Shown: in pieces, positions 3,258 through 57,832 of the stretch
Layout: each line of letters starts with the position of its first letter
How positions within the stretch are numbered: the first letter of the stretch is position 1
Assembly (NCBI GenBank): GCA_013202205.1
Contig: JABMSB010000031.1
Location: 310 to 64,309 of the forward strand
Length of the DNA: 64,000 nucleotides
Direction of reading: 5' to 3'
From: Candidatus Omnitrophota bacterium
GTDB taxonomy: Bacteria > Omnitrophota > Gorgyraeia > JABMSB01
Notes under the pieces: model-generated
Databases searched by the model: none
Told to the model about the DNA's origin: nothing
Seen by the model: the letters and a program-made list of their open reading frames with translations, nothing else
Made by a program: the position numbers and the translations under genes

Positions 3258-3292
3258 AAAGATAGACGAAGAGTTATAGAGAGCTACAGACA

Positions 3293-3341
3293 CTTTACGT
3301 AACACAAACGGCGATAAGCTGTTACTGATAAAATAAGATCC
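3293..3341 (+). repeat. Conserved ~50-bp 3'-flanking element, copy 2
   Basis: CTTTACGTAACACAAAC is identical to copy 1. It is followed by GTTACTGATAAAATAAGATC; copy 1 reads GTTACTGCCAAAATAATAATC. Confidence 0.6.
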
Positions 3342-3397
3342 TAATGAGATAAGTTACCCAATAGAATAATGGGGTATCTTCCTTATGTGCCAGTGGC

Positions 3398-3420
3398 GCA
3401 AAGGGGGGTACCCCTTTTTA
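3398..3420 (+). terminator. Rho-independent terminator-like hairpin (AAAGGGGGGTACCCCTTTTT)
   Basis: GC-rich palindrome GGGGTACCCC flanked by A- and T-runs, downstream of the acidic protein gene. Confidence 0.5.
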
Positions 3421-3421
3421 G

Positions 3422-3450
3422 TTGACAATATAGATATAATTAGCTACAAT
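3422..3450 (+). promoter_or_regulatory. Near-consensus sigma70 promoter TTGACA-N17-TACAAT driving the hisG leader
   Basis: TTGACA at 3422-3427, 17-nt spacer, TACAAT at 3445-3450. Confidence 0.55.
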
Positions 3451-3609
3451 ATGTGGGCGTGAAGAAACGAAGAGCGAAAAAGATAAAGGTCAGGCGTACT
3501 TGGCGGATTAAGCCGATCACCAAGGTCAAAGAGAGCAATAAGCTCTACTCGCGCAGGAGGAGTAAGCGCAAGCTCAGAAAACGCCTGGAAAAAGAAGGAT
3601 TAATTTTCG

Positions 3610-24254: not shown

Positions 24255-24265
24255 CCAGGAGAAGA

Positions 24266-25603
24266 GTGGAGAAGCAGAAGACCATAAAAAAAGAAGTGAC
24301 GATAGAAGGCGCCGGGTTAAATACAGGCATCAACGTCAAATGCAAGTTTAAGCCCGCAAGCTTAAATTCCGGGATTAATTTTATCAGGACCGACTTGCCA
24401 AAGAGGCCTGCGATAAAGGCATGCATATCGAATGTCCTTGAGCTCTCAAAGAGCGTCAGGCATACCTCCATAGGCAATGATGGGGTAGAGATCCATACGA
24501 TAGAACATCTCATGGCCAGCATATCCGCCCTCTCGATAGATAACCTTGAGATCGAGATAAATGGCCGGGAGATGCCGGCCATAGACGGAAGCGCGCTATT
24601 ATATTTTGAAGTTTTAAGAGACGCCGGCATTGTGGAACAGGATGGGCCCCGCAAGAGGTTTGTGGTGAAGGAACCAATATGGGTCCAGGACAATAATTGC
24701 AAGCTTATGATCTTGCCCAGGGTTGCAGATGACTCCCTTGCTATATCATATACGCTCGATTATGACCATCCCATGATACGTACGCAACACATGAGCATCA
24801 CACCCACCGAAAAGTTCTTCGAGAAGGAGATTGCTCCCGCAAGGACATTTTGCCTTGAGCGGGAAGTGGAAGAGCTTAAAGGTTTAGGCCTTGGCAAAGG
24901 GGCTTCATATGATAATACGCTTGTTGTCGGTGAGGATGGTGTCATAAAGAATAAACTCCGTTTCGACGACGAATATACAAGGCACAAAATATCGGACCTC
25001 ATGGGCGATCTCTATCTTTTGGGAATGCCCATCACAGGACAGATAATCGGCATTAAGAGCGGCCACGTCCTTAATATAAAGATGCTAAAAAAAATCCAGA
25101 TGCATATAGAGAGAGGCGAGGCAGGCGCGATTAAGGCCGGAAGTGTCGGGCCGGATTTGAGCAAGGGCGAGCTCGATCGTGAAACTATTCAAAAGATACT
25201 CCCCCACAGGGATCCGTTTCTCTTTGTCGATCGTATCATAGAGATAGAGCCGGATAAGCGCGCGGTCGGTATAAAGAATCTGACGATGAACGACGACTTC
25301 TTCAGGGGCCATTTCCCGGGGAAACCTATTATGCCCGGGGTCTTGATGGTAGAAGCGATGGCTCAGGTTGTCGGTGTAATCCTTCTTGCAAAAGGAGAGC
25401 GCCACGGCAAGATCGCCTACTTTTTGTCTATGAATAATGTTAAATTTAGAAAGACGGTACTGCCGGGTGATCAACTTGTGATGGATGTTGAGATCATAAA
25501 GATGAAATTGAGGACGGGCCAGGCCAGAGGCCGTGCCTCGGTAGACGGCAATCTTGTATGTGAAGCCGATATGATGTTTTATGTGTCGAAAGACGAGGGA
25601 TAA
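24266..25603 (+). CDS. lpxC: Bifunctional LpxC (UDP-3-O-acyl-GlcNAc deacetylase) / FabZ (3-hydroxyacyl-ACP dehydratase) fusion; GTG start at 24266
   Basis: N-terminal half matches LpxC (TIKKEVTIEGAGLNTG...FIRTDL). C-terminal half matches FabZ (LPHRDPFLFVDRI...HFPGKPIMPGVL). RBS aggaga upstream of the GTG. The ORF-track ATG at 24152 would overlap lpxD by 100 nt. Confidence 0.85.
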   Translation: MEKQKTIKKEVTIEGAGLNTGINVKCKFKPASLNSGINFIRTDLPKRPAIKACISNVLELSKSVRHTSIGNDGVEIHTIEHLMASISALSIDNLEIEINGREMPAIDGSALLYFEVLRDAGIVEQDGPRKRFVVKEPIWVQDNNCKLMILPRVADDSLAISYTLDYDHPMIRTQHMSITPTEKFFEKEIAPARTFCLEREVEELKGLGLGKGASYDNTLVVGEDGVIKNKLRFDDEYTRHKISDLMGDLYLLGMPITGQIIGIKSGHVLNIKMLKKIQMHIERGEAGAIKAGSVGPDLSKGELDRETIQKILPHRDPFLFVDRIIEIEPDKRAVGIKNLTMNDDFFRGHFPGKPIMPGVLMVEAMAQVVGVILLAKGERHGKIAYFLSMNNVKFRKTVLPGDQLVMDVEIIKMKLRTGQARGRASVDGNLVCEADMMFYVSKDEG

Positions 25604-38017: not shown

Positions 38018-38128
38018 TATCTATGAGCATAGTAGAGATCAAAAGGCCTTCCGTATTCGCTGTTTGTGATTTCTTTTTTTCGCTGATACTGCTACCTAAA
38101 TCTCTATCGCTCATCTTATCGCCATGGG

Positions 38129-38332
38129 TTGCATCTTATCGATAATAACCCTCGCAGAGAAATACGGCATTTCTTTCCAGCACTTTATGACATCACTGAA
38201 TCTTATAGAAAGCTTGGGCGGTTACATCAAGCCATGTTTTATTATCAGCGCGCCCTCAATGTTAACCCTAATGATAAGAAGGTCTTACATGGGTTAAGCA
38301 TTATAGATAAAGCTATACCTCATGGTAAGTAA
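38129..38332 (+). pseudogene. Remnant TPR fragment, paralogous to the C-terminus of the Wzy-TPR protein at 43602-46118
   Basis: ALYDITESYRKLGRLHQAMFYYQRALNVNPNDKKVLHGLSIIDKAI aligns with AYYGIGESYNKLEQFNRALFYYQETLRLKPDGKDILQKIESI at roughly 45% identity. No upstream domain and no RBS. Confidence 0.5.
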
Positions 38333-38379
38333 AAAAAGTAGATATTAAATGCAGGTCAAGTTCTAATTTAAAAGGGATA

Positions 38380-39645
38380 ATGAGAGGATATATCAAAAGC
38401 GCTTATTTTCTTTATAAAAAATATATACATAACTTTTCCTGGAGATATTTTGGATATTTTGCAAGAACATGTATAGCTTTTTTTATCTTTCTTATCGCCG
38501 CTAGACTTTTGACACCAGAGGCATTTGGAAAATATAATTACTTTATAGCTATAGCCTCTCTGCTGGCTATATTTGGAGATTTTGGAATAAGCACCTCTGT
38601 CAGCAAATATGTACCAGAGTATAGAATAAAGAACAGAGGAAAGATAAAGTCTATACTTTTTTCTTCATTAACAATTTGTTTTATTTTGTCTTTTTCTGTT
38701 TCGATATTTGTTTTGATTTTCGGGAAAGAGCTTTTTTCCGAGGACTACATATATATTTTATATACGATACCTCTAATATTTCTGATCAGCGGGGTTAGGG
38801 TTTTTGATGGATTTTATAGGGGTTCTGAAAGATTTAAAGAACTCGCCATCATTTCTTTGATTTCTGGTTTGGTTGGTTTGGGAAGTGCCTATTTCTTAAT
38901 CCTTCTTTACGGAGTTGCAGGAGCAATATTTACTCAAGTCTTATCTTATCTTGTACTTTTTACTGTGCTGACAAAATTTACAAAAGAAAGCTTCACGCCT
39001 TTTGATAAGAAAATAGCAAAAACAATTTCTAAATACGCCTTAGTTGTAGGTCTTTCAGGGTTAGCTTATTTTCTTTATACGCGTATTGATATTATAATTT
39101 TGGGATATTATGGATATACAATAGAGATCGGATATTATAGTATTATTGATAAATTTTTTCAATTTTTATTTATACCTTTTGTTTTATTTGGTCAGGTGAT
39201 TGCTCCCGATGTAACTAAATTGGTAACTCAAAAAAAATATCAAAAGGTTAAACAGCGTGGATTAAATATAATTTATTTATTCATTCTTGGAATATGTATC
39301 AGTATTTTTGTTTATTTTCTGGTGCCTCCAATAATCAAGAGCATACTCCCCGAATATTTTAAAAGAGATCTTTTGATGATTTTAAACGTTTTGCTTTTTT
39401 TGTTACCTTTTAAGATTTGTGGTGTGCTAATAGTCAACGGTTTTGTGGTGCCCTCAGGTTTAGCTAAAATAGTAACCGTCATTACAGGCATAGGCGGCAT
39501 CCTTAATGTCTTACTAGATTTTCTTTTTATAAAATGGTATGGGTTTATAGGAGTTTTCTATGTTACTGCGTTACTACATAGTTTAGCCATCATTTTTACA
39601 TATATTATATATTATAGAAGTATCTCAAAAAGGGCATTAGGGTAA
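38380..39645 (+). CDS. Polysaccharide flippase (Wzx / MOP superfamily), 12+ TM
   Basis: 421 aa. Entirely hydrophobic helices. AT-rich membrane-protein codon usage. Confidence 0.7.
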   Translation: MRGYIKSAYFLYKKYIHNFSWRYFGYFARTCIAFFIFLIAARLLTPEAFGKYNYFIAIASLLAIFGDFGISTSVSKYVPEYRIKNRGKIKSILFSSLTICFILSFSVSIFVLIFGKELFSEDYIYILYTIPLIFLISGVRVFDGFYRGSERFKELAIISLISGLVGLGSAYFLILLYGVAGAIFTQVLSYLVLFTVLTKFTKESFTPFDKKIAKTISKYALVVGLSGLAYFLYTRIDIIILGYYGYTIEIGYYSIIDKFFQFLFIPFVLFGQVIAPDVTKLVTQKKYQKVKQRGLNIIYLFILGICISIFVYFLVPPIIKSILPEYFKRDLLMILNVLLFLLPFKICGVLIVNGFVVPSGLAKIVTVITGIGGILNVLLDFLFIKWYGFIGVFYVTALLHSLAIIFTYIIYYRSISKRALG

Positions 39646-40367
39646 TGAAGCCAAGCAAAGTATATTCAAAGATTCGAAATAAGTTATTCAGAAAATTTAT
39701 TATTCTGCATTATTACCTTTATAGAGATGAGCTAAGGACGAAGATAAACCATGTGTTTCAGTATGATGATTTAGATATAGGGTTGTTTTTCGAAGAACAA
39801 GAAGAAGGTGCTTTGCCTGGGGATAAAAAATATAGCGCAGCCGACTATTATAAGTATATGGTTTCTCGATATATATTTTCTATCAGATATATAAAAAACA
39901 AGACTGTACTGGATTCAGGATGTGGTTTTGGTTGGGGATCTTATTTAGTCTGTAATTATCCCGAAAAGATAATTTCAATTGATTTAAATGAAAAGGCCTT
40001 AGATTTTGCAAAGAGCCATTGGGATGATAAAAAATTACATTTTTTAAAATGTTCTTTATTGAATATAGATTCCTTAAACGAGACCTTCGACGTTATTTTA
40101 GGAATGGAGATAATAGAACATCTATCTAGCAAGGATGGAGAGACATATTTATATCAGTGTTTCAGAAATTTAACAGATGGCGGAATTTTAATACTAAGCT
40201 CTTTCTTTCCAGACTTAAGAAAAGAATCAGAGAAGGCAGAAAAGAGGAATAAATTCCACCTAAAGATATTTACAAAACAGGAAATAAAAAAGCTGGCACA
40301 GCATGTGGGTTTTTCAAAAATCCAGTTTTTGGGTAACTTATTAGTAATATTAAAGAAAAGACCATAG
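39645..40367 (+). CDS. Class I SAM-dependent methyltransferase
   Basis: Motif I LDSGCGFGWGS. Motif post-I ISIDLN. Confidence 0.75.
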   Translation: MKPSKVYSKIRNKLFRKFIILHYYLYRDELRTKINHVFQYDDLDIGLFFEEQEEGALPGDKKYSAADYYKYMVSRYIFSIRYIKNKTVLDSGCGFGWGSYLVCNYPEKIISIDLNEKALDFAKSHWDDKKLHFLKCSLLNIDSLNETFDVILGMEIIEHLSSKDGETYLYQCFRNLTDGGILILSSFFPDLRKESEKAEKRNKFHLKIFTKQEIKKLAQHVGFSKIQFLGNLLVILKKRP

Positions 40368-40493
40368 ATCCATTGAAAAATGAATTAAAAGTATATTTGG
40401 CTTGTCATAATCGGGTAGGAGTCAACGCATTTTTAGTTTAAATTGGTAAGGCCCCGTAATTCATTTTAAAAATAAACCGATGGAATAAGCAGG

Positions 40494-41168
40494 ATGAGCA
40501 TAAAAACATCAAAGACTGTACATGAAGATGACTGGAGAAATATAAAGAAAGATTATACTTTTTTAAAAAAGAATAAAGACATTTCAGAAAGGATGGCGTT
40601 ATTAATTAATTTTTTTAAAAGAGTTAAACCTCGAAAGATGTTGGATATTGGGTGTGGTTCGGGCTATTTGGGGTATTTGATTAAGAGAATGGATATGGAT
40701 AGAGATTTAATAATTAAAGGTTTTGATATTTCCGAATATGCTATTAGCCAGATAACATCTTATGATAAAACATATTTATTAGATATCGATAAAAAAGATA
40801 TTCCCGAAGAGAGCGATTATTTCGATATGGTGGTTTGTGGCGAAGTGTTAGAACATATTTATGATGTTGACCATTGCTTGGATGAGATAAAAAGAGTTCT
40901 TAAACCAGGCGGTAAGGCTATTATTACAACTCCAAATTTCAGTTATTGGAAATATCGAATTGTTTGTCTTTTTGGTGGCATTCCAAGCATAACAAAAGAT
41001 CCCCGGCATATTCGCAACTTTAATCATAATTTTCTATTCAGCAAATGTTCTGGTAAAGATTTTGATGTTACATATTCTGTTAGAGAAAAGAAAGATCCTT
41101 TGACTAAAATATTGGGAATAATTTTTAGTAAAATGGTTGTATTAACTTTGACTAAACGAGAGAAATAA
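40494..41168 (+). CDS. Class I SAM-dependent methyltransferase
   Basis: Motif I LDIGCGSGYLG. VVCGEVLEHIYD. LKPGGKAIITTPN. Confidence 0.75.
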   Translation: MSIKTSKTVHEDDWRNIKKDYTFLKKNKDISERMALLINFFKRVKPRKMLDIGCGSGYLGYLIKRMDMDRDLIIKGFDISEYAISQITSYDKTYLLDIDKKDIPEESDYFDMVVCGEVLEHIYDVDHCLDEIKRVLKPGGKAIITTPNFSYWKYRIVCLFGGIPSITKDPRHIRNFNHNFLFSKCSGKDFDVTYSVREKKDPLTKILGIIFSKMVVLTLTKREK

Positions 41169-41287
41169 AATCATGAATAGATCAAAAGAAAACAATGCAA
41201 AATATGGCGAACCATATAAGATTTTTTAGAGATGCTTTTTAGGTGATCCGCTAGTGATATTTACAAAAGAAACATAGGCCCAGCAAA

Positions 41288-42685
41288 ATGAATAAAAAAA
41301 TATGTTTGGTCTACCCTAATTTAATGAAACTCCCCAAGTTTTTTAATAAAGTGACCAATATTCCACAGAGCTCTACCCTTCTTCCGCCTTTAGGATTATT
41401 ATATATAGCTTCAAACTCAAAATACAAAATTGATATAATTGATAATAGGATAGAGAAACTTGCTGAGTTTAAATTATATAGCAGATTAAAAATTTATGAT
41501 ATAGTAGGTTTTGGTGGAACAATATTTGAGGTTCAAGAGGCAAGAAATATTTCTATGCGGTTAATGAAAGAGGGTAAAATTACCATATATGGCGGGCCAA
41601 ATGCCACTGTCAACTGGGAACTTTATGTTGGAGATTTCTCAATCATTATCAGGGGAGAAGGCGAAAATATCTTTGATAAGATAATAGAAAATTATAAGTT
41701 CATAAGAAATATAGAACACTTAGGTTTTAAAGAAATTAGAGGTTCTCTCGTTAATTTGGCTATATTCAGAATAAAGAATCTGGATAGCTTAAAATTTCCA
41801 AATAGAACCTTGATTAAGCTTGAGAGCTATAATAGGATAGAGGAGAATTATTTACCAAACACATATCCGGTAGATACGATTTCAAGCAGCCGTGGATGCC
41901 CCTTTGATTGTTATTTTTGTTCTTCCCAACATATTTGGCAAAGAAGATACACATATAGAACGCCAGACAATATTGTTAGAGAAATTAAAGAATTAATGGA
42001 TGTGTTTGGCACCAGAGGAATATATTTTAGAGAAGATAATTTTACTTTTTCAAAAAAAAGAACAAAAGAATTTTGTAAAAAAATCAAGCCTCTTAGCGTT
42101 AAGTGGGTTTGTGAATCCAGAATAGATGCTATTGATAAATCCTTAGCTATGGAGATGGCCGAGTCTGGATGTAGAGGCATTTGGTTTGGTATAGAGTCCA
42201 CATCCAATCAATCGTTGCGCAAGATTAAGAAAGGAATAACGATAGAGCAAGCAAAAAAAACAATACTTTTATGCAAGAAATATGGGATAATCACGGGGGG
42301 AGGGTTTATGATTGGCTTTCCTTGGGAAGATATTGATGATATGAAAAGGACTTTTGTAGAAAGTAAAAAATTAGGATTAGACAACATTTTCTATAACAGG
42401 ATCTATGCATTTCCGCACTCCGAGATGTATGAAGATATCAGAAAGAAACATCTAAATAGCTGCGAATATAATAATATCATCATCCCCGATACTGAATATA
42501 TTTCCTCAAAAGATGTTACCGAGTTTTATTATAAATGTCAATATAATTGGAAAAAGAGATTAATAAAGATGTTTATTCCCGAGATGCATAGAACACATTT
42601 TAAAAAGAGACACCCAATCTTAACTATGCTGATAAAAAAAAATAGCACAAATATAAAGCACAAGAACCAAGGAACATCGGCATGA
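41288..42685 (+). CDS. B12-binding-domain radical SAM protein
   Basis: N-terminal B12-binding-like Rossmann domain. CxxxCxxC in SSSRGCPFDCYFCSS. 465 aa. Confidence 0.7.
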   Translation: MNKKICLVYPNLMKLPKFFNKVTNIPQSSTLLPPLGLLYIASNSKYKIDIIDNRIEKLAEFKLYSRLKIYDIVGFGGTIFEVQEARNISMRLMKEGKITIYGGPNATVNWELYVGDFSIIIRGEGENIFDKIIENYKFIRNIEHLGFKEIRGSLVNLAIFRIKNLDSLKFPNRTLIKLESYNRIEENYLPNTYPVDTISSSRGCPFDCYFCSSQHIWQRRYTYRTPDNIVREIKELMDVFGTRGIYFREDNFTFSKKRTKEFCKKIKPLSVKWVCESRIDAIDKSLAMEMAESGCRGIWFGIESTSNQSLRKIKKGITIEQAKKTILLCKKYGIITGGGFMIGFPWEDIDDMKRTFVESKKLGLDNIFYNRIYAFPHSEMYEDIRKKHLNSCEYNNIIIPDTEYISSKDVTEFYYKCQYNWKKRLIKMFIPEMHRTHFKKRHPILTMLIKKNSTNIKHKNQGTSA

Positions 42686-43485
42686 ATGACAATCCTAAGA
42701 TATCAGTTGTTATGGCAGCTTACAACGAAGAGAAATATTTAAGAAAAGCTATTGAGAGTATTTTAAACCAAACATTTTCTGATTTTGAGTTTATTATCAT
42801 AAACGACGGCTCAACTGATACTACTTCAAAGATTATTAAAGAGTATATTTCACGGGATTCACGTATTAAGACAAAAGATACAGGAAATTCTGGACTAACA
42901 CGTGCAAAAAATATAGCGCTAGAAATGGCTAAGGGAGATTTGATCGCCATGATGGATGCTGATGATATATCTCTGCCAGACAGGCTGGAAAAGCAAAGGA
43001 GATTCTTAGAGTATAATCAAGATGTAGGATTGCTCGGATCAGGATATTACCGAATAGATGAACAAGGCAATATTTTATATGAGCACAATCCTGTAACCGG
43101 CAGCAAAGAAATACATAAAAATCTTATAAAACGCAATATATTCTGCCATTCAACGATAGTAGTAAGAAGAGGAGTTTTTGATAAAGTAGGCTTTTATAAT
43201 GAGAATTGGCGCACTTCACAAGATTACGAGTTTTACTTTCGGGTGACGAAAGACTTCAAATTAGCTAATCTAAAAATCCCTTTAGTATGCTGGAGGTTGA
43301 GCAAGACAAGCATCTCTTTTACTAGGCAAAAAGACCAGTTAAAAGATGCTCTTCGGGCCCAGCTAAATGCCATGAGAGAGAGGCAATATCCTTTTTACTC
43401 TTATCTGTTTTTAATCCGTCCAGCACTAAAATTAATGTTCTACAACTTAGCCGATAACCAAAAGGATTTTTCGTCTCCACGGTAG
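42682..43485 (+). CDS. Family 2 glycosyltransferase
   Basis: ISVVMAAYNEEKYL. DGSTD. MDADD (DxD). Confidence 0.8.
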   Translation: MNDNPKISVVMAAYNEEKYLRKAIESILNQTFSDFEFIIINDGSTDTTSKIIKEYISRDSRIKTKDTGNSGLTRAKNIALEMAKGDLIAMMDADDISLPDRLEKQRRFLEYNQDVGLLGSGYYRIDEQGNILYEHNPVTGSKEIHKNLIKRNIFCHSTIVVRRGVFDKVGFYNENWRTSQDYEFYFRVTKDFKLANLKIPLVCWRLSKTSISFTRQKDQLKDALRAQLNAMRERQYPFYSYLFLIRPALKLMFYNLADNQKDFSSPR

Positions 43486-43601: not shown

Positions 43602-46118
43602 ATGACAGCCGCAATATTAAAAATCCCATCTATATCTGAAGCTTGTAATTTTTTTATCTTTGCTTCACTTATTTTTCTTATCATTTTTACACCCTTAACT
43701 TTTGGCGCGGTAGAGACATGGTCAATAATGACAATGGAATTATGCATCCTTTTCATGGTTTTATGCTGGTTTCTAAAGATGCTTCACAAGGGTGAACTTT
43801 CTTTTGTTAAGAATCCCATAGTGTTACTTATCGCTTGTTTCATAGGATTGATTTTATTTTCGCTCATCCCATTGCCTAAATTCTCATTGGCTTTATTATC
43901 CCCCAACACAGTTAAATTATACACCATGAGCCTCGGAGACCTGTACAGTTCCTGTCGCTCAATCAGCGTTTATAAATGGCAGACCGCATTCGAACTACAT
44001 AAGGTATTGGCTTATATAGGTGTCTTCTTTATTATTCTAAATAATATGCGGCACAGAAAGGAAATCGACCGTATAGTGATATGCATTATCGCCGTAGGAA
44101 CTTTTCTCGCTATGGTTGGGGTCGCTGAGAGATATGGCCCCGGGAAGATCGTTTTTTTAAGAACGGGGTTTGGGGAGGATGGGTTTTTTGGCCTGTTTGT
44201 CAACAAAAACCACCTCGCTGGATATCTGGAAATGGTAATACCTTTGGCCATAGCGAAGACATTCATTGATAGTAAGAATATAAGGGGTATCTTGTGGGGT
44301 TTCGCTTCCTGCCTTATGTTATCGCAGCTTTTTTTGACATATTCCAGAGCGGGGATTATAAGTTTTTCGATGTCGTTCCTTATGTGCATTGTTCTCCTCT
44401 CTGTTTTAGGGATGCGTAAAGAAAAAAGATATAAGAGGCATTTTTTTATTATTTTGGTTTGCTTAGCCATAACGTTATTGATGGTGGCGTCCGCGTTAAA
44501 GATAACAACAAACCACATGAACAATACGTTACAAACGGATTTATCAACTAGGTTGCAGCTCTACAAGGATATTTTTCGATTGATTCAAAGATTCCCGATA
44601 TTTGGTGTGGGTTTGGGTAATTTTCAAACGGTGTTTCCGATATACCAATCTTTTGCATATAGAAGTATATTTATTTACGCCCACAACGATTACCTACAAC
44701 TTTTTTCGGAATTGGGTATATTTGGTTTTATTATAGTTTTTTGCGGAGGTTTTTATTTTTTTAAGGGTGTTTTAAGTGCCATCTTGGAAAGTTACAATAG
44801 AAACCCGGAGAGCGACCGCTACGTGGTTAGTCTATTGTTTGGATGTTTAGCCGGTTTTTTGTCTATATCTTTTCATAGTTTGCTGGATTTTAATATGCAA
44901 ATCCCTGCAAACGCCCTACTATTTACGATAATAATAAGCATCACGCTGAAATTGATTATTAAAGAACATGGCGAGGTGGAAGATAAAAATGATTATAAAG
45001 TGACAAAAGCGCTTATTGGAAGAAACCGCATAATAGCATATTTTTCCTTTCCCGCCCTGATGATATATGCCCTTTTTCCCATAAGGGTGTTTTTAACGAA
45101 TACCTTTGCGGAAAAGATAAAGGAAGAAACAAAACCCATTTCTGTTTCTATAGATCTCGAGAAACCCCTACATCTCTCTTCCGGCAATAGCGAACTATAT
45201 TATCACTTAGCGGACTTGTACGAGGCCTCAGGAGATAAACACACAGCGATAAGAAATTATATGAGGTCTATAAAGCTCAACCCGCTAAATAGCAAATATC
45301 ATTTTCGGCTTGGATTGATTTCTGGCGTACAAAGAGATTTTGAAAGGGCGACCTTGCTGAATCCAGCCGGAGAAGACATTTATTATGAAACAGGAGTTTT
45401 TTATCTGAAGGGTCATCAACCCATAAAAGGGGCAGAGCAATTTAAGAAGGCTTTGTCTTTGTCTACACATTATGAAGAAGCAATTTTTGACCAAATATGG
45501 GGCTCTTCCGCCGTTTTTGATCATGATAAATATAAAGTTATGGCTGAGGTGATACCCGATAGCCCTGAAGCAAAAGCTAAGCTTGCGAGATATCTTAAGG
45601 ACAAGCAACTGTGGGATGAATCTGAAAGGGAATATCGCGTTGCGATCGACATGGCGAATGGAAAGGAAAAATTGCGCTATATGGCCGATTTTGCGCATAA
45701 TTTTCTCATGAGGGGACGCCGTAGGTTTGGGGATGCCAAAGAGATATGGCTTAAATATATCGCCCTTAATGATACTAATATCCATGCCTTTTTTAACCTC
45801 GGAAGGTGTTATGAATATGAGGGCGAGCTGGATAAAGCTGCCGAATTCTATGCATACGCAATTCAAATGGCTCCAGAGAGAGTATATTATGACAAACTTG
45901 CGCAAGTCTTGTTTAGAAAAGGGGATTATGAAGGGGCGATTGAGACGTGGCAAGAGTGCATTAAAATTTCTCCAAATTTTTCACCCGCCTATTATGGCAT
46001 AGGAGAGTCATATAATAAGCTCGAACAATTTAATCGCGCTCTGTTTTATTATCAAGAAACATTAAGGCTTAAACCAGATGGTAAAGACATCCTGCAGAAG
46101 ATAGAATCTATTAGATGA
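43602..46118 (+). CDS. O-antigen ligase/polymerase (Wzy_C) domain membrane protein fused to C-terminal TPR repeats
   Basis: About 12 TM helices. Wzy_C motif YAHNDYLQLFSELGIFG. About 330-aa TPR tail. Confidence 0.7.
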   Translation: MTAAILKIPSISEACNFFIFASLIFLIIFTPLTFGAVETWSIMTMELCILFMVLCWFLKMLHKGELSFVKNPIVLLIACFIGLILFSLIPLPKFSLALLSPNTVKLYTMSLGDLYSSCRSISVYKWQTAFELHKVLAYIGVFFIILNNMRHRKEIDRIVICIIAVGTFLAMVGVAERYGPGKIVFLRTGFGEDGFFGLFVNKNHLAGYLEMVIPLAIAKTFIDSKNIRGILWGFASCLMLSQLFLTYSRAGIISFSMSFLMCIVLLSVLGMRKEKRYKRHFFIILVCLAITLLMVASALKITTNHMNNTLQTDLSTRLQLYKDIFRLIQRFPIFGVGLGNFQTVFPIYQSFAYRSIFIYAHNDYLQLFSELGIFGFIIVFCGGFYFFKGVLSAILESYNRNPESDRYVVSLLFGCLAGFLSISFHSLLDFNMQIPANALLFTIIISITLKLIIKEHGEVEDKNDYKVTKALIGRNRIIAYFSFPALMIYALFPIRVFLTNTFAEKIKEETKPISVSIDLEKPLHLSSGNSELYYHLADLYEASGDKHTAIRNYMRSIKLNPLNSKYHFRLGLISGVQRDFERATLLNPAGEDIYYETGVFYLKGHQPIKGAEQFKKALSLSTHYEEAIFDQIWGSSAVFDHDKYKVMAEVIPDSPEAKAKLARYLKDKQLWDESEREYRVAIDMANGKEKLRYMADFAHNFLMRGRRRFGDAKEIWLKYIALNDTNIHAFFNLGRCYEYEGELDKAAEFYAYAIQMAPERVYYDKLAQVLFRKGDYEGAIETWQECIKISPNFSPAYYGIGESYNKLEQFNRALFYYQETLRLKPDGKDILQKIESIR

Positions 46119-47505: not shown

Positions 47506-48852
47506 ATGGTGTTATTTTCTGATCTAAGAATTTTAGCAATAGTATTTGGTGGGTGTCTGTTGGTATTGTCATTTTTTAGACCCTGGCGGGGGTTATTGAT
47601 TTTTAGTGCCGCACTTTTTTATGAGGCGGCGATTGATATGAAATTATTCGTTATAGAATCGTCACATTTGTATAGATCATGGGACGCCCTTGGGAGCTTT
47701 AAGCTTTTTGGCATGGCCATTGTTATTGGCTGGTTTTTGCAGGCCTTGATTAAGAAGAGAGTTAAGTTGCCGCCGCCCAGCCGAATCTGGTTGCTTATCG
47801 GCATTTTTATGATTATCGTGATTTCAGGGATGTTCTCTATATATAAAGCCAACACTTTAGTATATATTTATTCTTTTTTGGGCGTGGTCGGGATATATTT
47901 TATGATCTGTGATTTATGTTTTGAGCATAAACGAATCGAGCAACTATTGTTGGTTGTGGCGATAGCCGCTTTAATAAACGCACTCATTGCAATAGTTCAA
48001 TATATATTTAAGATAGATGTCCCATGGGATCTGGGCTACAAGTTCGGACAATATAGAGTGGTTGGCGGAATGTCTGATCCAAATTATTTTGGATATCAAA
48101 TTCTCACAGTCTTTCCTATCATCTTCTTTTTCTTTTATAGGACCAGGTCTAAACTGAAAAAAATCGTATTGTTTGCTATAGAGATGATTATGGTTACGTC
48201 AATTGTACTTACATTTTCAAGAGCAGCTTTTATTACATTGTGTGTAGTCTTATTCTTTTTAATGATAATCTTCATAAAACACAAGAAACTTTCTTACGTC
48301 ATAGTTATTATTTTGATGACCTCGCTATTGGGAGTAGTTATTTTTGCTAACCCCAAATATTCCGAAAGATTATCAACCCTGTTTGGGGTCGCGGAGATAG
48401 GCCAGTATGGTGAAACTTCGGAAAGAACTCTTAAAACTAGGGAAGATATTTTCTTCACCGGAACGAAAATGTTTCTCGATCATTTCTGGCTTGGCGTGGG
48501 GCCTAATAACTTTCCCATATACTTAGAATCATATGCACACAGAAGTCTATTAATATCAAGAGGAAGAGGAGCACACAATTCTTTTTTGGGCGTATCTGCC
48601 GAACTTGGCATATTCGGCCTGTGCTTATTTTTACTTTGGATTCTGTTTATATTAAAAGGATTGCGTTTTACACGCAAGAGAGTTCCAAATGATCCTTCTT
48701 CTGCGTTATTATCCGAAGTACTACAGATAAGCATTTTTGCCAATCTGTTTATGTTGACAACGTTAGGTACTTCTTTTAATGTGAAATTATTATGGATATG
48801 GTTTGGTTTAGCCGAAGCCATGAGACAGGTATCTATTTCCGGTAGGACATAA
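47506..48852 (+). CDS. Second O-antigen ligase/polymerase-like (Wzy_C) membrane protein
   Basis: Multi-TM. GAHNSFLGVSAELGIFG motif. Confidence 0.65.
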   Translation: MVLFSDLRILAIVFGGCLLVLSFFRPWRGLLIFSAALFYEAAIDMKLFVIESSHLYRSWDALGSFKLFGMAIVIGWFLQALIKKRVKLPPPSRIWLLIGIFMIIVISGMFSIYKANTLVYIYSFLGVVGIYFMICDLCFEHKRIEQLLLVVAIAALINALIAIVQYIFKIDVPWDLGYKFGQYRVVGGMSDPNYFGYQILTVFPIIFFFFYRTRSKLKKIVLFAIEMIMVTSIVLTFSRAAFITLCVVLFFLMIIFIKHKKLSYVIVIILMTSLLGVVIFANPKYSERLSTLFGVAEIGQYGETSERTLKTREDIFFTGTKMFLDHFWLGVGPNNFPIYLESYAHRSLLISRGRGAHNSFLGVSAELGIFGLCLFLLWILFILKGLRFTRKRVPNDPSSALLSEVLQISIFANLFMLTTLGTSFNVKLLWIWFGLAEAMRQVSISGRT

Positions 48853-49018: not shown

Positions 49019-50035
49019 ATGGATTGGAAGAGATGTAAGGTTCTTGTAACGGGAGGCCTTTCCTTTATAGGCTCGCATCTGGTTGACGCTCTGGTGAAAC
49101 GAGGCGCAACCGTTCGTGTAGTAGATGATGTAAGCAGTGGCAAGATTGATAACATCCAAGGACACCTCAAAGTGGGACGGGTCGAGTTCATTAAGGGAGA
49201 TCTCAAAGTGCAAGATATAGCACTCAAGGCAGTTGAGGGGATGGATATTGTTTTCCATCTCGCGGCTGACCACGGCGGACGTGGTTACGTCGATCTGCAC
49301 CAGGCGGCATGTTCAACAAACCTTCTTTTAGATGGCCTTCTCTTTCAAGCATGTTATAAGTCGGGGATAAAAAAAGTTATATACGCCTCATCAGGTTGCG
49401 TGTATCCCGACTATCTGCAGAAGGACCCGAAAGAAATATTGTATCTCAAGGAGGAGATGGCTGGACCGCCCTATGAAGCTGATAAGATGTACGGCTGGGC
49501 CAAGCTCATGGGGGAGATGACGCTTAAAGCGTATTATAAAGATTATGGTATGAAATCAGCATCCTGTCGTTATTTTACAGTTTATGGCGAACGAGGTGTA
49601 GAGAATCATGCCGTTATCGCTATGATCGCCCGCGCTTTTATTAAGCAGGATCCTTTCATTGTTTGGGGCAGCGGAGAGCAGATACGCAACTGGACATATA
49701 TTGACGATATCGTATGCGGTACTATCTTAGCAGCTGAGAATATTGACGATGGCACAGCGATTAATTTAGGTACTATGGAAAGAATCCGGGTTATCGATGC
49801 AGTCAATGAGGTATTGCATCGCACCGGACATAAAGCAGAGGTTAAATTGCGCCCGGAGATGCCAACCGGACCATATAATCGGGTGGCCGATAATACTCTG
49901 GCAAAGAAATTACTGAATTGGGAGCCACAGGTCAAATTTATGGATGGCCTATACCGTACCATCGATTGGTATTTCTCAACCAAGGATCGGAAGAAGGTTA
50001 AAAAGATCCTGTCGAAGATGCTTACAGAGCGGTAA
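49019..50035 (+). CDS. NAD-dependent sugar-nucleotide epimerase/dehydratase (extended SDR)
   Basis: VLVTGGLSFIGSHL. YASSGCVY. YxxxK. Confidence 0.75.
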   Translation: MDWKRCKVLVTGGLSFIGSHLVDALVKRGATVRVVDDVSSGKIDNIQGHLKVGRVEFIKGDLKVQDIALKAVEGMDIVFHLAADHGGRGYVDLHQAACSTNLLLDGLLFQACYKSGIKKVIYASSGCVYPDYLQKDPKEILYLKEEMAGPPYEADKMYGWAKLMGEMTLKAYYKDYGMKSASCRYFTVYGERGVENHAVIAMIARAFIKQDPFIVWGSGEQIRNWTYIDDIVCGTILAAENIDDGTAINLGTMERIRVIDAVNEVLHRTGHKAEVKLRPEMPTGPYNRVADNTLAKKLLNWEPQVKFMDGLYRTIDWYFSTKDRKKVKKILSKMLTER

Positions 50036-50226: not shown

Positions 50227-51354
50227 ATGGGGTTTATAAAAGACGCCTACACCATTTTTAGAATAGGCGCGCGCACCGTGTCGAATACCTATCTTAAATC
50301 TAGCAGGCCAAGCCATGTCTCTATAGCTGTAACCAACCGATGCAACTCGCGATGTATTTACTGCGAGACATATCTGTGTGATTTTTCGAAGGAGCTCACC
50401 ACCCAACAGATGATCTCTATTATTGACGAGATCAGTAGGGACGGAAGTTGTTATATAACGCTTACCGGCGGTGAGCCGTTTATGCGGCAGGATATTTTCG
50501 ACATCATAAAACACTGCTATAAGCGCAACCTCATTGTTAATATACCGACAAATGGCCTTAAAATACATAATTTTAACGCAGGCCAAATAAACACAATCGT
50601 AAAATGCGTAAGAAATATTCAACTTTCCATCGATTCGGCCGATACAAAGGAGAACGACTTTATACGAGGCGTAGATGGATCGTTGGATTTGGCAATCCAG
50701 GGGGTCAAGAGACTCAAAGATGGGGGGTTCGATAAAATCGGAATATTAACTGTTATAAGCAGATATAATTATAAAAAGCTAAAGGGCCTTTTGTATCTTA
50801 CAAGAGACCTTGGCCTTAAAAGGATACGATTTCAACCTGTGGGTATCAATTCTAACTATCCCAGCATAGCACCGCTCAAGGACAAAAGGGAAGTTTTAAT
50901 AAGAGGGAAGCAGATAGACGAGCTCAGGGACACCCTATCAGAGTATATAAGGCTAGAAAATAGATTAGGTTTAACTACTAACTTAAAATTTTTAAAGACA
51001 TGGATCGGTCCGTACTTCAAGTTTATCGAAAGCGAAAAGTTTTTTATGAAAGAGGTTAACAGATGCTTCAGATGCATTTATCCAGCTACGGCATTATTCA
51101 TAGACAGCAATGGGAGGCTGCAACCGTGCCAATTCTTGAACAACGTTGGAAGCGGTCTCAAAGAAGTTGTTTATAATTGGCGACATAATAAAAAATTAAA
51201 TGAGATAAGAAAGAGTCTAAAGAAGGGCAATTTTTTTCAGGAATGTCGAAGGTGCATGTGTACGTTTGAGTTCAGCTCTACCTATCAGCCATTTAGTAAA
51301 TCACAGCCGCCTTTGTTAATCTCAAAGGTCAGGCAAAAGATCAAGGATTCTTAA
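50227..51354 (+). CDS. Radical SAM protein with C-terminal SPASM-type Cys cluster
   Basis: CNSRCIYCE (CxxxCxxC). C-terminal CFRC...C...C...CRRCMC. Confidence 0.7.
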   Translation: MGFIKDAYTIFRIGARTVSNTYLKSSRPSHVSIAVTNRCNSRCIYCETYLCDFSKELTTQQMISIIDEISRDGSCYITLTGGEPFMRQDIFDIIKHCYKRNLIVNIPTNGLKIHNFNAGQINTIVKCVRNIQLSIDSADTKENDFIRGVDGSLDLAIQGVKRLKDGGFDKIGILTVISRYNYKKLKGLLYLTRDLGLKRIRFQPVGINSNYPSIAPLKDKREVLIRGKQIDELRDTLSEYIRLENRLGLTTNLKFLKTWIGPYFKFIESEKFFMKEVNRCFRCIYPATALFIDSNGRLQPCQFLNNVGSGLKEVVYNWRHNKKLNEIRKSLKKGNFFQECRRCMCTFEFSSTYQPFSKSQPPLLISKVRQKIKDS

Positions 51355-52259
51355 TGTCCCGAAGACAAAAACCATACATTATTACTAAATATAACAGGAT
51401 TGTTCCGGCGCCACCTCCCACATTGCAAGAACAGATTATCCTCAGAAGAAAGCTATTCCAGACAGAGAGACATGTTTCTATTCGGAAGATGGCAGAGGGA
51501 ACTTGTGAGCATCTCTCTCGGTATAAGTTTGCTCTTCAATACGCTAAAGGCAGATCTGTATTAGATGCCGGCTGTGGTTCTGGATATGGTGCACATTTTC
51601 TGAAGTTGGAAGGTGCCTCGATGGTGTATGGTATCGACATATCTGCTAGGGCTATAGGTTACGCAAGACAGAATTTTTTGGCCGAGGGCTTAGATTTTGA
51701 ATGTACCGACCTAACCAAGACGCTAAATCTGAAAGATAGATATTTTGATGTGATTATTTCTTTCGAGATCATAGAACACATAAAAGATACAGCTGCTTAC
51801 TTGTCAAATTTAGCGAGATTGCTGAAAGGGGATGGATATTGCATATTTTCAACCCCAAACCGGGATATTAACTCTCCCGGATGGTCTATTCCACACAACT
51901 CCTATCATGTGAAAGAATATAATGCCAGTGAGTTTCAAGATCTTCTAAATGGATATTTTTCAACGTCGGTTTTATTTGGCCAGTACCCCTCGAGGCGAAT
52001 AATAGATTTACGGAAGAGAAAACTCGGATTGCGCAAGATGGCATATGACGGTAAATTGGCTCATATTTATCAATCCATAGCACCTATTTTGCCTAACAGG
52101 TTGAGAAGAAACTTGGTTGATGTGGCAGGGGCTATATATTTGATGTTCAAGAAACCATCAAGTGCAGGACTTGGAGAGAAGCTTGATTTTTCCGATTTTC
52201 TTTTTATTGAGGACGATTTTAAAGATGCCGAACATCTGTTAGCCATTTGTAGAATATAA
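51354..52259 (+). CDS. Class I SAM-dependent methyltransferase
   Basis: LDAGCGSGYGA. ISFEIIEH. Confidence 0.75.
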   Translation: MSRRQKPYIITKYNRIVPAPPPTLQEQIILRRKLFQTERHVSIRKMAEGTCEHLSRYKFALQYAKGRSVLDAGCGSGYGAHFLKLEGASMVYGIDISARAIGYARQNFLAEGLDFECTDLTKTLNLKDRYFDVIISFEIIEHIKDTAAYLSNLARLLKGDGYCIFSTPNRDINSPGWSIPHNSYHVKEYNASEFQDLLNGYFSTSVLFGQYPSRRIIDLRKRKLGLRKMAYDGKLAHIYQSIAPILPNRLRRNLVDVAGAIYLMFKKPSSAGLGEKLDFSDFLFIEDDFKDAEHLLAICRI

Positions 52260-52408: not shown

Positions 52409-53455
52409 ATGAGCAGGATTGCCCTTGCCTTATGGATGCAAAAAATTTCTGAACATTTTTTGGGGAAATCGTACGCCATATGCGCTCGATTGCTTCCCCT
52501 CTCGAAAACTATCCACCGTTTCAATTCAAAGCCGACTGAGCTGCATCTGGAATTTACAAATACCTGTAATTGCAGTTGTATTTTTTGTGGCTATCAATAT
52601 CAGAAGCGCAAAAAAATAATTATGTCCGAAGAAATATTAATAAAAGCAATCTCTGATTTTAGTAATATAGGTGGTGGAGATGTTATAGTTACCCCTATAG
52701 TAGGAGAAGCGTTGGTTGATCCTGATTTTATTAAAAAGATCAAGATGATTAGGGCTTATGCGAGTATCAAGAAGATTTTACTTACCACAAACGCTACGCT
52801 TATTCACCACTATGGCATAGATGACATATTAACAACAGGTTTGACAGATATTTACATAAGTACGGCGGGGTTTGATAAAGAAACATACACGAAACTTTAT
52901 CGCGCGCCCTACTATGACTTAATGCGGGACAATACTATTGCCCTTCTTTCCCGAAACGAAGAACTTGGAAAGCCAGTAAATATAACTATACTTATCCGAG
53001 CAGGCAGGTCTCTTTCCGAGGTTTTAGGCACCGTAGACGCACAGCGCGTTCTGAGATTTAAGCCAAAGATAGATTTTGCGTATTATTTTCACGATTTCGG
53101 AGGTAGGATAAAAAAGGAGGATCTCTGGCCAGGGGCAAAGATAAGAGATCCGGGCAAAAAGAAAGAACCTTGTTTTAGCTTGTACAATGGCCCAGTTGTT
53201 CTGCCGGATGGCGAGGTTTGGATGTGTGACTGCGCCGCCGCTATGGATTCTGGTACCAATCTTTTTATAGGCGATATTAAAAAAGAGACCCTTATGAACA
53301 TATGGCAAGGCAAGCTACGCAGAAACCTTATCGCACAATTCTATAAGCAAGGAAAGCTAAATCCAACTTGTTTTAAGTGTACTGCATACCAAAATCTTGA
53401 TCGCTATCGCCATTTTAATCCGTATTTAAAATCTGGCTGGAACTTTTTTAAATGA
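52409..53455 (+). CDS. Second radical SAM/SPASM-type protein
   Basis: TNTCNCSCIFCGY. C-terminal C..C...C cluster (CFSL...CDCAA...CFKC). Confidence 0.65.
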   Translation: MSRIALALWMQKISEHFLGKSYAICARLLPLSKTIHRFNSKPTELHLEFTNTCNCSCIFCGYQYQKRKKIIMSEEILIKAISDFSNIGGGDVIVTPIVGEALVDPDFIKKIKMIRAYASIKKILLTTNATLIHHYGIDDILTTGLTDIYISTAGFDKETYTKLYRAPYYDLMRDNTIALLSRNEELGKPVNITILIRAGRSLSEVLGTVDAQRVLRFKPKIDFAYYFHDFGGRIKKEDLWPGAKIRDPGKKKEPCFSLYNGPVVLPDGEVWMCDCAAAMDSGTNLFIGDIKKETLMNIWQGKLRRNLIAQFYKQGKLNPTCFKCTAYQNLDRYRHFNPYLKSGWNFFK

Positions 53456-56323: not shown

Positions 56324-57832
56324 ATGACAAAAAATAGAAAGAGACTTATCGTCCTCGGAATAGATAGTTTAGATTCAGTTTTGCTGAATAGATTCGAACC
56401 CTTCTTACCTAATTTTAAGAGACTAAAAGAACAAATGCCGACTCTAAAATATTCCTCTGTTTTACCTCCTGATTCTATAACTGCATGGGCCAGTATATAT
56501 ACGGGTTGCGATCCCGCAAAACACGGGAGAGTTTATTTTATTGCCGTAGATAAGGTCAATGAGGCCATATATAACGAAATAGATAATAATGACTTTCATG
56601 GAAAGACGTTTTGGGATATAGCAAGCGATGCCAAAAAGAAAGTGTGTGTCCTTTTTCCCCATATAGGGTATCCACCGTGGAAGGTCAATGGTCTAATGGT
56701 GTCGAAAGCCATAACCAAAGAAGAAATAAGAAGTTACCCTGAATCAGCAATCAGGGGTTACGATCTATCAGATGTTAAAAGGTTAAGAGGCGTTCCGACA
56801 GTTTTTCAACGTAAACGTTATATAAAAGATGCACAGCGCCTACTTTTAAATGAAGAGAGTTTTGGATTGCGTATATATGAAGATTATAAGCCAGATCTAT
56901 TTTTCCTTTATTCCAGCGTCTTAGATTTTATAGAACATAACTTTTGGAGTCTTTGCGACAAAGATGACCCTGCTTACCCAGGATCAAATTCATATGAGGA
57001 AGTGATTAAAAAGTTCTACAAGCTCTATGATAATATGCTGGGCAAGTTTTTAAAGTTGCTTGACTCCGAGACAACACTTATGGTATTAAGTGACCATGGC
57101 CACGGTATGAGGCCGGTTAAGTTATTCAATATAAACGAATTCTTAAGACGTGAGGGGGCCTTAGCATCAAAGATAAAAAGCACCCACTTCTACGACCCAT
57201 ATTTCGCAATAGAGCAGCTAAAACACTGCCTTACATTTTTAATAGACAAATTTAGTAAATACGGACTGGGTAATTTGGCAATTTCTGTACTCCACTATTT
57301 TACGGCCGGCAGGAAGCTTTACAAGGCACCATCATATATAGATTGGGATAAGACATTAGCGCATCTGGCAGACCTATCAGGAGTAAAGGCATATTCTTAT
57401 GGAGGGATCGTTATCCGGATGGATAACCTGAAGCAGCAAAACTACGAACAGATACGAACTGAGATAATAGAGAAACTACGAAACATAAAAATTCCTTCCT
57501 CGGGGAAGGCATTATTTAAACTGGTTTGCAGAAGAGAGGATCTTTACAAAGGCAAACACATTTCTAAGTTTCCCGATATACTTTTTGAGCTCTCAGATGA
57601 GTATGGGGCGGGGTGGAGTGTCAATTCCTCGTTATTTGGCAGGACCTATTCACATAAGCTGCATGCCGGAACTCACAAAAGAGATACAGGGGTATTTTTG
57701 ATATCCAACCCTGATAAAATAAGCAAAGATCTTAATGAAATAAGCTGTATGGATATAGCACCTACCGTGTTAGGTTTGCTAGATGTAAAAGGTGATTATT
57801 CTTTTGATGGAAGATGTATAGTGGAGGATTGA
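56324..57832 (+). CDS. Alkaline-phosphatase-superfamily protein of the type I phosphodiesterase / nucleotide pyrophosphatase (NPP) type
   Basis: LIVLGIDSLD. S..P..S..AWASIYTG..P..HG. VLSDHGHG. Confidence 0.65.
   Translation: MTKNRKRLIVLGIDSLDSVLLNRFEPFLPNFKRLKEQMPTLKYSSVLPPDSITAWASIYTGCDPAKHGRVYFIAVDKVNEAIYNEIDNNDFHGKTFWDIASDAKKKVCVLFPHIGYPPWKVNGLMVSKAITKEEIRSYPESAIRGYDLSDVKRLRGVPTVFQRKRYIKDAQRLLLNEESFGLRIYEDYKPDLFFLYSSVLDFIEHNFWSLCDKDDPAYPGSNSYEEVIKKFYKLYDNMLGKFLKLLDSETTLMVLSDHGHGMRPVKLFNINEFLRREGALASKIKSTHFYDPYFAIEQLKHCLTFLIDKFSKYGLGNLAISVLHYFTAGRKLYKAPSYIDWDKTLAHLADLSGVKAYSYGGIVIRMDNLKQQNYEQIRTEIIEKLRNIKIPSSGKALFKLVCRREDLYKGKHISKFPDILFELSDEYGAGWSVNSSLFGRTYSHKLHAGTHKRDTGVFLISNPDKISKDLNEISCMDIAPTVLGLLDVKGDYSFDGRCIVED

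Follow-up and report, generated by a model that had tools for sequence, protein, structure and literature searches.

A polysaccharide locus in a 64,000-nucleotide stretch of DNA from a Candidatus Omnitrophota bacterium (GenBank assembly GCA_013202205.1, contig JABMSB010000031.1, positions 310 to 64,309; hereafter the window) encodes a radical S-adenosylmethionine (SAM) enzyme of 465 aa with an N-terminal B12-binding-like Rossmann domain (41288-42685, + strand). Its gene is preceded by two genes for class I SAM-dependent methyltransferases, MT1 (240 aa, 39645-40367, + strand) and MT2 (224 aa, 40494-41168, + strand), and followed by one for a family 2 glycosyltransferase (GT2; 267 aa, 42682-43485, + strand). 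We present evidence that such a radical SAM (rSAM) enzyme, one or two class I methyltransferases and a GT2 very probably form a glycan-tailoring module, usually near a Wzx-type flippase, in Wzx/Wzy loci, and we tentatively favor cobalamin-dependent C-methylation as the single most likely outcome of the predicted rSAM chemistry. A sequence-only reading of this DNA had placed two methyltransferases and an rSAM enzyme at 39645-42685, ahead of a GT2, in a polysaccharide setting. The three open reading frames (ORFs) on the + strand coincide exactly with that placement and all three genes are real; the rSAM stop codon and the GT2 start codon, read from the sequence, share an ATGA overlap of the kind seen in translational coupling, and the setting is borne out by Wza, Wzc, Wzx, GT2, GT4 and two Wzy_C genes in the locus. 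A survey of the full-text literature on O-antigen, exopolysaccharide, capsule and glycan loci found no report of a B12-type rSAM enzyme in a Wzx/Wzy polysaccharide pathway, and we found neither a curated NCBIfam model that covers this rSAM family nor a characterized member of it. The recurrent and sometimes fused module is a new result that yields a testable hypothesis, and the compact five-gene cassette of the window together with natural single-polypeptide fusions makes that hypothesis directly testable.

The association of these genes was traced through 13 non-redundant loci besides the window, in which the rSAM proteins are 45-57% identical to that of the window (E-values as low as 1e-169), with 79 distant relatives from a search of genome contigs (<=36% identity) serving as background. 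The genome contig search recovered only relatives at or below this identity, often in arrays of several rSAM paralogues, and a search of viral contigs likewise recovered only relatives at <=36% identity. Such arrays, comprising three to six adjacent B12-type rSAM paralogues, are seen in Bathyarchaeia, Omnitrophota and other metagenome-assembled genomes (loci L001, L005, L006, L028 and L073). Among the close loci, two display the order Wzx-MT1-rSAM-GT2 (L081, L082), one Wzx-MT-MT-rSAM-GT2-GT2 (L085), one Wzx-MT-MT-rSAM (L093) and one MT-rSAM-orf85-GT2 (L090), while a minimal cluster of the form GT2-rSAM-GT2-Wzx-GT2 is found in L087 and L089. In L094 the order is GT2, an orthologue of MT2 (336 bits) and the rSAM gene, the MT2 orthologue lying 1 bp upstream of the rSAM gene. 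Orthologues of the window Wzx (179-369 bits) occur just upstream of the methyltransferase and rSAM genes in L081, L082, L085, L093 and L095, and an MT1 orthologue directly precedes the rSAM gene in three loci (242 bits in both L081 and L082, 146 bits in L085). In five loci a class I methyltransferase gene lies 0-5 bp upstream of the rSAM gene or overlaps it, and across loci the methyltransferases adjacent to the rSAM gene belong to at least 3 different subfamilies. A GT2 orthologue (100-188 bits) occurs in 9/13 loci. With the window proteins as probes, a GT2 within 3 kb of the rSAM gene was recovered in 9/13 close loci versus 14/79 distant ones (18%; Fisher p = 3e-4) and a methyltransferase within the same distance in 7/13 versus 4/79 (5%; Fisher p = 5e-5), these p-values being indicative only, as the loci are not phylogenetically independent. 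The methyltransferase count rises to 9/13 once L088 and L090 are added from Pfam and PHROG annotation. Most members of the rSAM family belong to uncultivated lineages, Omnitrophota and Nanoarchaeota among them.

Covalent fusions offer a second line of evidence. Searched with a profile, a set of 1.84 billion representative proteins gave 28,790 clusters at E<=1e-30, a number that reflects the large size of the superfamily, and domain make-up was taken from the top 150. One of these proteins (P0166) combines a B12 domain, an rSAM core, a class I methyltransferase and a GT2 in a single polypeptide; two others (P0176 and P0127) combine a B12 domain, an rSAM core and a GT2; P0124 joins a B12 domain and an rSAM core to a Methyltransf_24 domain and a TOD1/MUCI70 glycosyltransferase-like domain; and P0196 joins them to the C-terminal domain of an NDP-sugar C-methyltransferase and to a SPASM rSAM. 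P0166, P0176 and P0127 are each encoded by an ORF that is free of internal stops under translation table 11 and has zero N bases, and their rSAM domains share 31-35% identity with the window enzyme. Independently of gene order, the fusions show that the rSAM enzyme, a class I methyltransferase and a GT2 work together in this branch of the superfamily. Among the predicted proteins are also several of 1,800-2,300 aa with three or four tandem B12-type rSAM units (P0123, P0125, P0126, P0142 and P0202), and one of 1,879 aa (P0151) with the arrangement rSAM-MT-GT2-MT-GT2-rSAM. The gene for P0127 (L135, 6001-11394) lies directly upstream of fliD, with flhA beyond it on the opposite strand and TPR-glycosyltransferase genes upstream; in this organism the module may have its role in the glycosylation of flagellin and not in a polysaccharide.

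Could the rSAM enzyme and the methyltransferases nevertheless be independent passengers of a variable polysaccharide locus, brought together by chance? Polysaccharide loci are mosaic, several orthologue loci have no methyltransferases and the type of methyltransferase found beside the rSAM gene varies. Against this stand the recurrence of the 0-5 bp gene order in five independent loci, the enrichment of GT2 and methyltransferase genes near close orthologues relative to distant relatives and the verified fusion of rSAM, methyltransferase and GT2 domains in single ORFs, in the light of which we find chance adjacency very hard to credit. Through both the conserved coupled order and the fusions, the functional link between methyltransferases, rSAM enzyme and GT2 is far stronger than could be seen in the sequence-only reading, which had suggested multiple methylations on the polysaccharide; the further step of that reading to a class B methylase that forms a C-methyl or branched sugar is not established.

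Individual orthologue loci have features of their own. In L091 the rSAM orthologue is translationally coupled to a gene of the short-chain dehydrogenase/reductase (SDR) epimerase/dehydratase family, and the same locus combines the B12-type rSAM with two SPASM rSAMs. In L090 (JGI 3300002231 KVRMV2_100016184) the segment 6423-9272 encodes a methyltransferase-like orf193, the rSAM orthologue (468 bits), orf85 and the GT2, on a 47.5-kb contig with small co-directional ORFs, an IS605-family transposase pair, a helicase and a DnaA-like protein. Among the scanned ORFs of this contig only orf193, the GT2, the rSAM, the helicase and the DnaA-like protein gave PHROG matches, and it may be a plasmid or virus carrying a glycan-tailoring module. 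One Omnitrophota locus, represented by L085, L086 and L097, encodes at 1781-3996 a second B12-type rSAM as two genes (a 113-aa B12-binding and a 320-aa Radical_SAM protein), which is either a split gene or a frameshift; as this second rSAM is likewise translationally coupled to a GT2, the locus has two rSAM-GT2 pairs. Some orthologue loci also contain PMT- and YfhO-type GT-C genes.

Both methyltransferases of the window are conventional, as had been noted from the sequence: each scores above the cut-offs of class I Pfam families and contains a GxGxG SAM-binding motif. MT1 matches Methyltransf_25 (50 bits), Methyltransf_31 (47.5 bits) and Methyltransf_11 (47 bits), with LDSGCGFG as motif I, and MT2 matches Methyltransf_11 (61.5 bits), Methyltransf_31 (60.8 bits) and Methyltransf_23 (57.4 bits), with LDIGCGSG in the equivalent position. 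At 27% identity across 108 aa they are distant paralogues only. Neither reached the cut-off of any NCBIfam equivalog, the top model being UbiG (52-54 bits, MT1 at 52, versus a cut-off of 103), and their PDB matches are generic, the top ones for MT1 being weak matches to phosphoethanolamine N-methyltransferases (42 bits); with generic matches only, a specific assignment to either of these types was dropped. The GT2 matches PF00535 with 133 bits versus a cut-off of 23.3, and its closest families are EpsE and TuaG. We considered a GtrB/ArnC-like polyprenyl-phosphate sugar synthase, in which case the rSAM enzyme would act on a lipid-linked monosaccharide later transferred by a GT-C enzyme, and weakly rejected it, the GtrB-like C-terminal pair of transmembrane helices being found neither in the window GT2 nor in its orthologues. 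The GT2 is therefore probably a peripheral transferase of the repeat unit.

The 465-aa protein itself matches PF04055 with 69.6 bits versus a cut-off of 29.5 and contains the CxxxCxxC motif for the [4Fe-4S] cluster and SAM (C204 P F D C208 Y F C211; 41897-41920, + strand), in which C204, C208 and C211 are invariant in all 62 relatives of the family alignment (32-57% identical to the window protein). Its AlphaFold2 model (pLDDT 93.4, pTM 0.90) has a partial TIM barrel and matches rSAM structures at a Foldseek probability of 1.00, and an identical protein is recorded as 'B12-binding domain-containing radical SAM protein [Candidatus Omnitrophica bacterium]'. We propose that it is a functional rSAM enzyme of the B12-binding-domain ('class B') superfamily, in an uncharacterized subfamily; this family is one of many such class B subfamilies. 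Outside the cluster motif three further cysteines are conserved, C263, C275 and C295, which align with cysteines in AprD4 and not in QCMT.

The N-terminal Rossmann-like domain of the B12-binding type (aa 1-170; 41288-41797, + strand) bears the motifs LPPLGLLY, VGFGGTIFE, YGGPNAT and RGEGE. The family profile aligns this region with the cobalamin domains of TokK (profile positions 59-235, covering TokK residues 57-237), OxsB (42-361), CysS (91-239) and QCMT (96-385), all of them enzymes solved with cobalamin bound, as well as with the isolated cobalamin domain 4Q37, while the N-terminal domain of AprD4 scores only 0.6 bits against it. Further, 40/62 relatives match the B12-binding family PF02310, with a best E-value of 2e-26. 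In the model the domain has five strands and five helices in a Rossmann-like fold ahead of the partial TIM barrel, a layout that fits the 'class I' architecture of B12-rSAM enzymes in a review. Close orthologues are 53% identical in this domain and 53% in the rSAM core, and 20 of its columns are >=90% conserved, including YGGPNAT and RGEGE; the GGP and GEGE motifs are kept. We conclude that the domain is homologous to cobalamin-binding domains and has diverged from them under constraint, with cobalamin binding itself predicted. The AprD4 and ArsL enzymes caution that a Rossmann-like N-terminal domain does not guarantee cobalamin binding (PMC12931638).

Comparison with characterized B12-rSAM families gave no clear affinity. 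The top NCBIfam scores of the window rSAM protein are HpnJ 129.9, ApyD 128.5, BchE 127.0 and the SD_1168 P-methyltransferase 122.2 bits, versus cut-offs of 480-750, and the models for methylases in general gave, as score versus cut-off, SD_1168 122/575, PhpK 97/600, QCMT 87/360, HpnR 61/650, the RiPP C-methyltransferase 51/282, KedN5 24/700 and TsrM 21/500. No curated NCBIfam cut-off was reached by the window protein, and none of the 62 relatives came close to one. As the four best models lie within 8 bits of one another, at about a quarter or less of their cut-offs, this ranking does not discriminate, and we did not assign the family by it. The sequence-only reading had named a best match to a non-methylating BchE or HpnJ type as grounds for giving up methylation; HpnJ (129.9 bits) does nominally outscore SD_1168 (122.2 bits), by a margin that is meaningless. 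In PDB searches with the family profile the rSAM core matched AprD4 with 129 bits and QCMT with 105 bits, and Foldseek ordered the structures as AprD4 (TM-score 0.71), TsrM (0.65), QCMT (0.61), OxsB (0.60-0.69) and TokK (0.61-0.64). Methylases and non-methylases are thus interleaved in both the family and the structure rankings, and the chemistry of the window rSAM enzyme is therefore not separable by sequence, which justifies the earlier caveat that not every B12-rSAM enzyme is a methylase. This accords with a review in which no sequence or structural feature separates methylases from non-methylating B12-rSAM enzymes and in which each functionally characterized group includes C-methyltransferases (PMC12931638).

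C-methylation is favored because the cobalamin-type domain is conserved, because methylases predominate among characterized class B enzymes and because the gentamicin enzymes GenN and GenD1, discussed below, provide a precedent. In the proposed mechanism the GT2 would add a sugar to the undecaprenyl-diphosphate-linked repeat unit at the cytoplasmic face of the membrane, and MT1 and MT2 would use SAM to methylate that sugar at hydroxyl or amino groups. As motif and fold are intact, the rSAM enzyme is expected to reduce its [4Fe-4S] cluster and cleave SAM to a 5'-deoxyadenosyl radical, which would abstract hydrogen from an unactivated sugar carbon. The resulting sugar radical would be methylated by methylcobalamin bound to the N-terminal domain, giving a C-methyl (branched) sugar, the cob(II)alamin would be re-reduced and then re-methylated by a second SAM, and the Wzx of the cassette would flip the tailored unit. 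In this scheme we infer the substrate, the binding of cobalamin and the transfer of the methyl group. If the rSAM enzyme does C-methylate, this would explain how branched sugars could arise once the glycosyl residue has been transferred, with no need for a keto-sugar nucleotide as intermediate.

Several observations weigh against C-methylation by this route. 1) The window protein and its N-terminal 191 aa have no match to PF02310 even at E<=10, so that its B12-domain call rests on family-level homology, and most of its closest orthologues likewise carry only PF04055; the B12-binding domain of the sequence-only reading thus stands by homology and predicted fold and fails in the Pfam search of the protein itself, whereas the rSAM core claimed with it is secure. 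2) The top NCBIfam matches include the non-methylases HpnJ and BchE. 3) The best solved structure by both profile and fold is AprD4, a sugar-diol dehydratase that has no cobalamin. 4) Of the 13 orthologue loci, 4-6 lack methyltransferases, and the rSAM enzyme is therefore not dependent on them. 5) The window contains no cobalamin genes, and many orthologue hosts (Omnitrophota and DPANN archaea) have small genomes. 6) According to the review, radical methylases have a hydrophobic residue below the corrin and TsrM and OxsB a polar one, and here TokK W76 maps to F80 (hydrophobic in 52/62 relatives) and OxsB N186 to T78 (Thr in 53/62), the register of this loop being ambiguous. 7) To our knowledge the glycan structure is known for no host organism. 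As regards the sixth point, the 'stacked' residue W215 of TokK maps to S213 in the window enzyme; given the ambiguous register, neither the lower-axial nor the 'stacked' position was used as evidence in predicting radical methylation.

A serious though less than probable alternative is radical chemistry without methylation: the rSAM enzyme would modify the sugar installed by the GT2, cobalamin serving as electron sink or being absent, and the class I methyltransferases would supply all the methyl groups. Candidate reactions would be dehydration of a 1,2-diol to a deoxy sugar in the manner of AprD4, contraction of the ring to give a carbocycle or a product of the oxetane type, epimerization or oxidation, and any such chemistry would constitute a new reaction type for glycan biosynthesis. 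Besides the AprD4 match and the want of a PF02310 match in the window protein, this alternative draws on the alignment of C263, C275 and C295 with cysteines of AprD4 and not QCMT, on the rSAM-SDR coupling in L091, which recalls the AprD4/AprD3 pair, and on the top NCBIfam place of HpnJ, whose pairing with HpnI has a logic mirrored by the GT-rSAM pairing (PMC13459092); the absence of features that would tell non-methylating B12-rSAM enzymes from methylases (PMC12931638) leaves room for it as well. However, the N-terminal domain aligns with true cobalamin domains rather than with that of AprD4 and is conserved like the core; the NCBIfam AprD4 model gives only 70 bits versus a cut-off of 500, below HpnJ, BchE and SD_1168; a reductase partner adjoins the rSAM gene neither in the window nor in most orthologue loci; and hopanoid genes are not present.

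A more specific version makes the rSAM enzyme a glycan editor. OxsB has been shown to contract a ring, as HpnJ and Cds have been proposed to do, and a comparable reaction might convert the GT2-installed sugar to a carbocyclic or otherwise non-canonical residue of a bacterial or archaeal surface polysaccharide, with the methyltransferases capping the newly formed groups. We regard this as unlikely; if true, the module, its single-polypeptide fusions included, would represent a widespread undescribed route to non-standard monomers at the stage of polymer assembly in Omnitrophota, DPANN archaea and other uncultivated lineages.

The rSAM enzyme might also have a target that is not a sugar carbon in the repeat unit. 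Candidates are a non-carbohydrate substituent, such as a phosphonate or a group of the phosphoethanolamine type methylated at P or C in the manner of Fom3, PhpK or SD_1168; the polyprenyl carrier; or a peptide or protein glycosylated afterwards. The P-methyltransferase models SD_1168 (122 bits) and PhpK (97 bits) are indeed among the better NCBIfam matches, MT1 has its weak 42-bit PDB match to phosphoethanolamine N-methyltransferases, the locus includes a gene of the type I phosphodiesterase family (56324-57832), and the position of the L135 fusion beside fliD and flhA suggests flagellin glycosylation there. However, the annotated parts of the window contain no phosphoenolpyruvate mutase or other phosphonate gene, no precursor-peptide or lipid-synthesis gene is conserved beside the orthologues, and the tightest partners of the rSAM enzyme, covalent fusions included, are GT2 and methyltransferase domains. 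A non-sugar target thus appears quite improbable, and C-methylation of a GT2-added sugar remains our preferred reading.

The cassette in the window opens with the Wzx-type flippase (421 aa, 38380-39645, + strand), which matches PF01943 Polysacc_synt with 89.7 bits and also MatE; the start codon of MT1 shares one base with its ORF, the last of Wzx. A scan of the five genes found no terminator-like sites inside the cassette, and a promoter scan found matches there at chance level. The GC content drops from ~0.45 upstream to 0.30-0.34 across 38.1-43.0 kb and recovers to 0.35-0.41 downstream, which delineates a low-GC island over Wzx-MT1-MT2-rSAM-GT2 (38100-43000, without strand). On account of the gene overlaps, the lack of an internal terminator and the sharp drop in GC content, the five genes look like a single co-transcribed and laterally acquired cassette. 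Upstream of the polysaccharide locus are housekeeping and lipid A genes, namely those for FtsH, ClpX, GlmU, DnaB, BamA, LpxD, LpxC-FabZ, LpxA, LpxI and LpxB. The lipid A genes form a compact run (LpxD, LpxC-FabZ, LpxA, LpxI, NAD synthase, an AAA-domain gene and LpxB) in which LpxC-FabZ is a fusion encoded by a single ORF (483 aa, 24152-25603) with LpxC and FabA/FabZ-like domains. The polysaccharide locus proper has the order porin, Wza, Wzc, Wzx, MT1, MT2, rSAM, GT2, Wzy_C-TPR, GT4 and a second Wzy_C, followed farther downstream by an SDR, two more rSAM genes, a third methyltransferase, GT4, GT9, the phosphodiesterase-family gene, a polysaccharide deacetylase and a WecA-like initiating transferase. 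The two Wzy_C proteins are membrane proteins resembling O-antigen ligases or polymerases (43602-46118 and 47506-48852), and the first of them (838 aa) has a long C-terminal TPR region as a fusion. The two extra rSAM genes lie in the segment 50227-53455: the first (50227-51354, 375 aa) has an AhbD/NirJ/SPASM-like core with a top NCBIfam score of 93 bits, and the second (52409-53455, 348 aa) an rSAM and a SPASM domain. Between them is the third class I methyltransferase (51354-52259) and ahead of them the SDR epimerase/dehydratase (49019-50035), giving the locus a total of three rSAM enzymes and three methyltransferases.

Among known systems, AprD4, the radical SAM 1,2-diol dehydratase of apramycin biosynthesis, resembles the window rSAM enzyme in having a sugar substrate, in overall fold (6FD2; Foldseek E = 1e-22, TM-score 0.71 over the full length) and in the cysteines aligned with C263, C275 and C295. 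It differs in that its NCBIfam model (NF033070) scores the window protein far below the cut-off (70 versus 500 bits) and in its AprD3-like reductase, for no such reductase adjoins the rSAM gene in the window, where the nearest SDR is at 49019. AprD4 also binds no cobalamin (PMC12931638). BchE (TIGR02026) is the only NCBIfam model aligned over nearly the full length (residues 20-388) and the top match across the family, reaching 3e-72 for one relative; however, the window protein scores 127 bits versus a cut-off of 481 and the window has no photosynthesis or bacteriochlorophyll genes. The JGI label 'anaerobic Mg-protoporphyrin IX monomethyl ester cyclase' on some relatives is over-annotation.

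HpnJ, which takes part with HpnI and HpnK in the formation of the hopanoid cyclitol ether, shares with the window enzyme the top NCBIfam score and the pairing of a B12-domain rSAM enzyme with a glycosyltransferase, as in rSAM-GT2 here. It is thought to remodel the glucosamine that the glycosyltransferase HpnI has attached to the lipid (PMC13459092). However, the window protein attains only 22% of the HpnJ cut-off (TIGR03471, 577.6) and aligns only over residues 119-389, and its neighbors are polysaccharide and lipid A genes and not hopanoid (hpn/shc) genes; the chemistry of HpnJ is itself putative. With TokK, QCMT (MgmA), TsrM, OxsB and CysS the window enzyme has in common a Rossmann domain of the cobalamin-binding type with five strands and five helices before a partial TIM barrel, but sequence identity is only 11-18%, these proteins have extra C-terminal domains without a counterpart in the window enzyme and their substrates are different (carbapenem, protein glutamine, tryptophan or nucleotide).

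GenK, GenD1 and MoeK5 are B12-type rSAM enzymes that tailor sugars in antibiotics of the aminoglycoside and moenomycin pathways; like Fms7, they are cobalamin-dependent C-methyltransferases of sugars. Compared by description rather than by sequence, GenD1 and GenK (with Fms7 and MoeK5) are similar to the window enzyme in domain order, with a Rossmann domain of the B12 type ahead of a CxxxCxxC core, and they act on glycosides. They differ in that their substrates are small-molecule antibiotics and not Wzx/Wzy intermediates, and no coupling or fusion to a GT2 is known for them. On the way to gentamicin one sugar is modified first by GenN, an N-methyltransferase of class I, and then by the cobalamin-dependent rSAM enzyme GenD1 (PMC4340712), a pair that parallels the pairing of methyltransferase and rSAM enzyme in the window.

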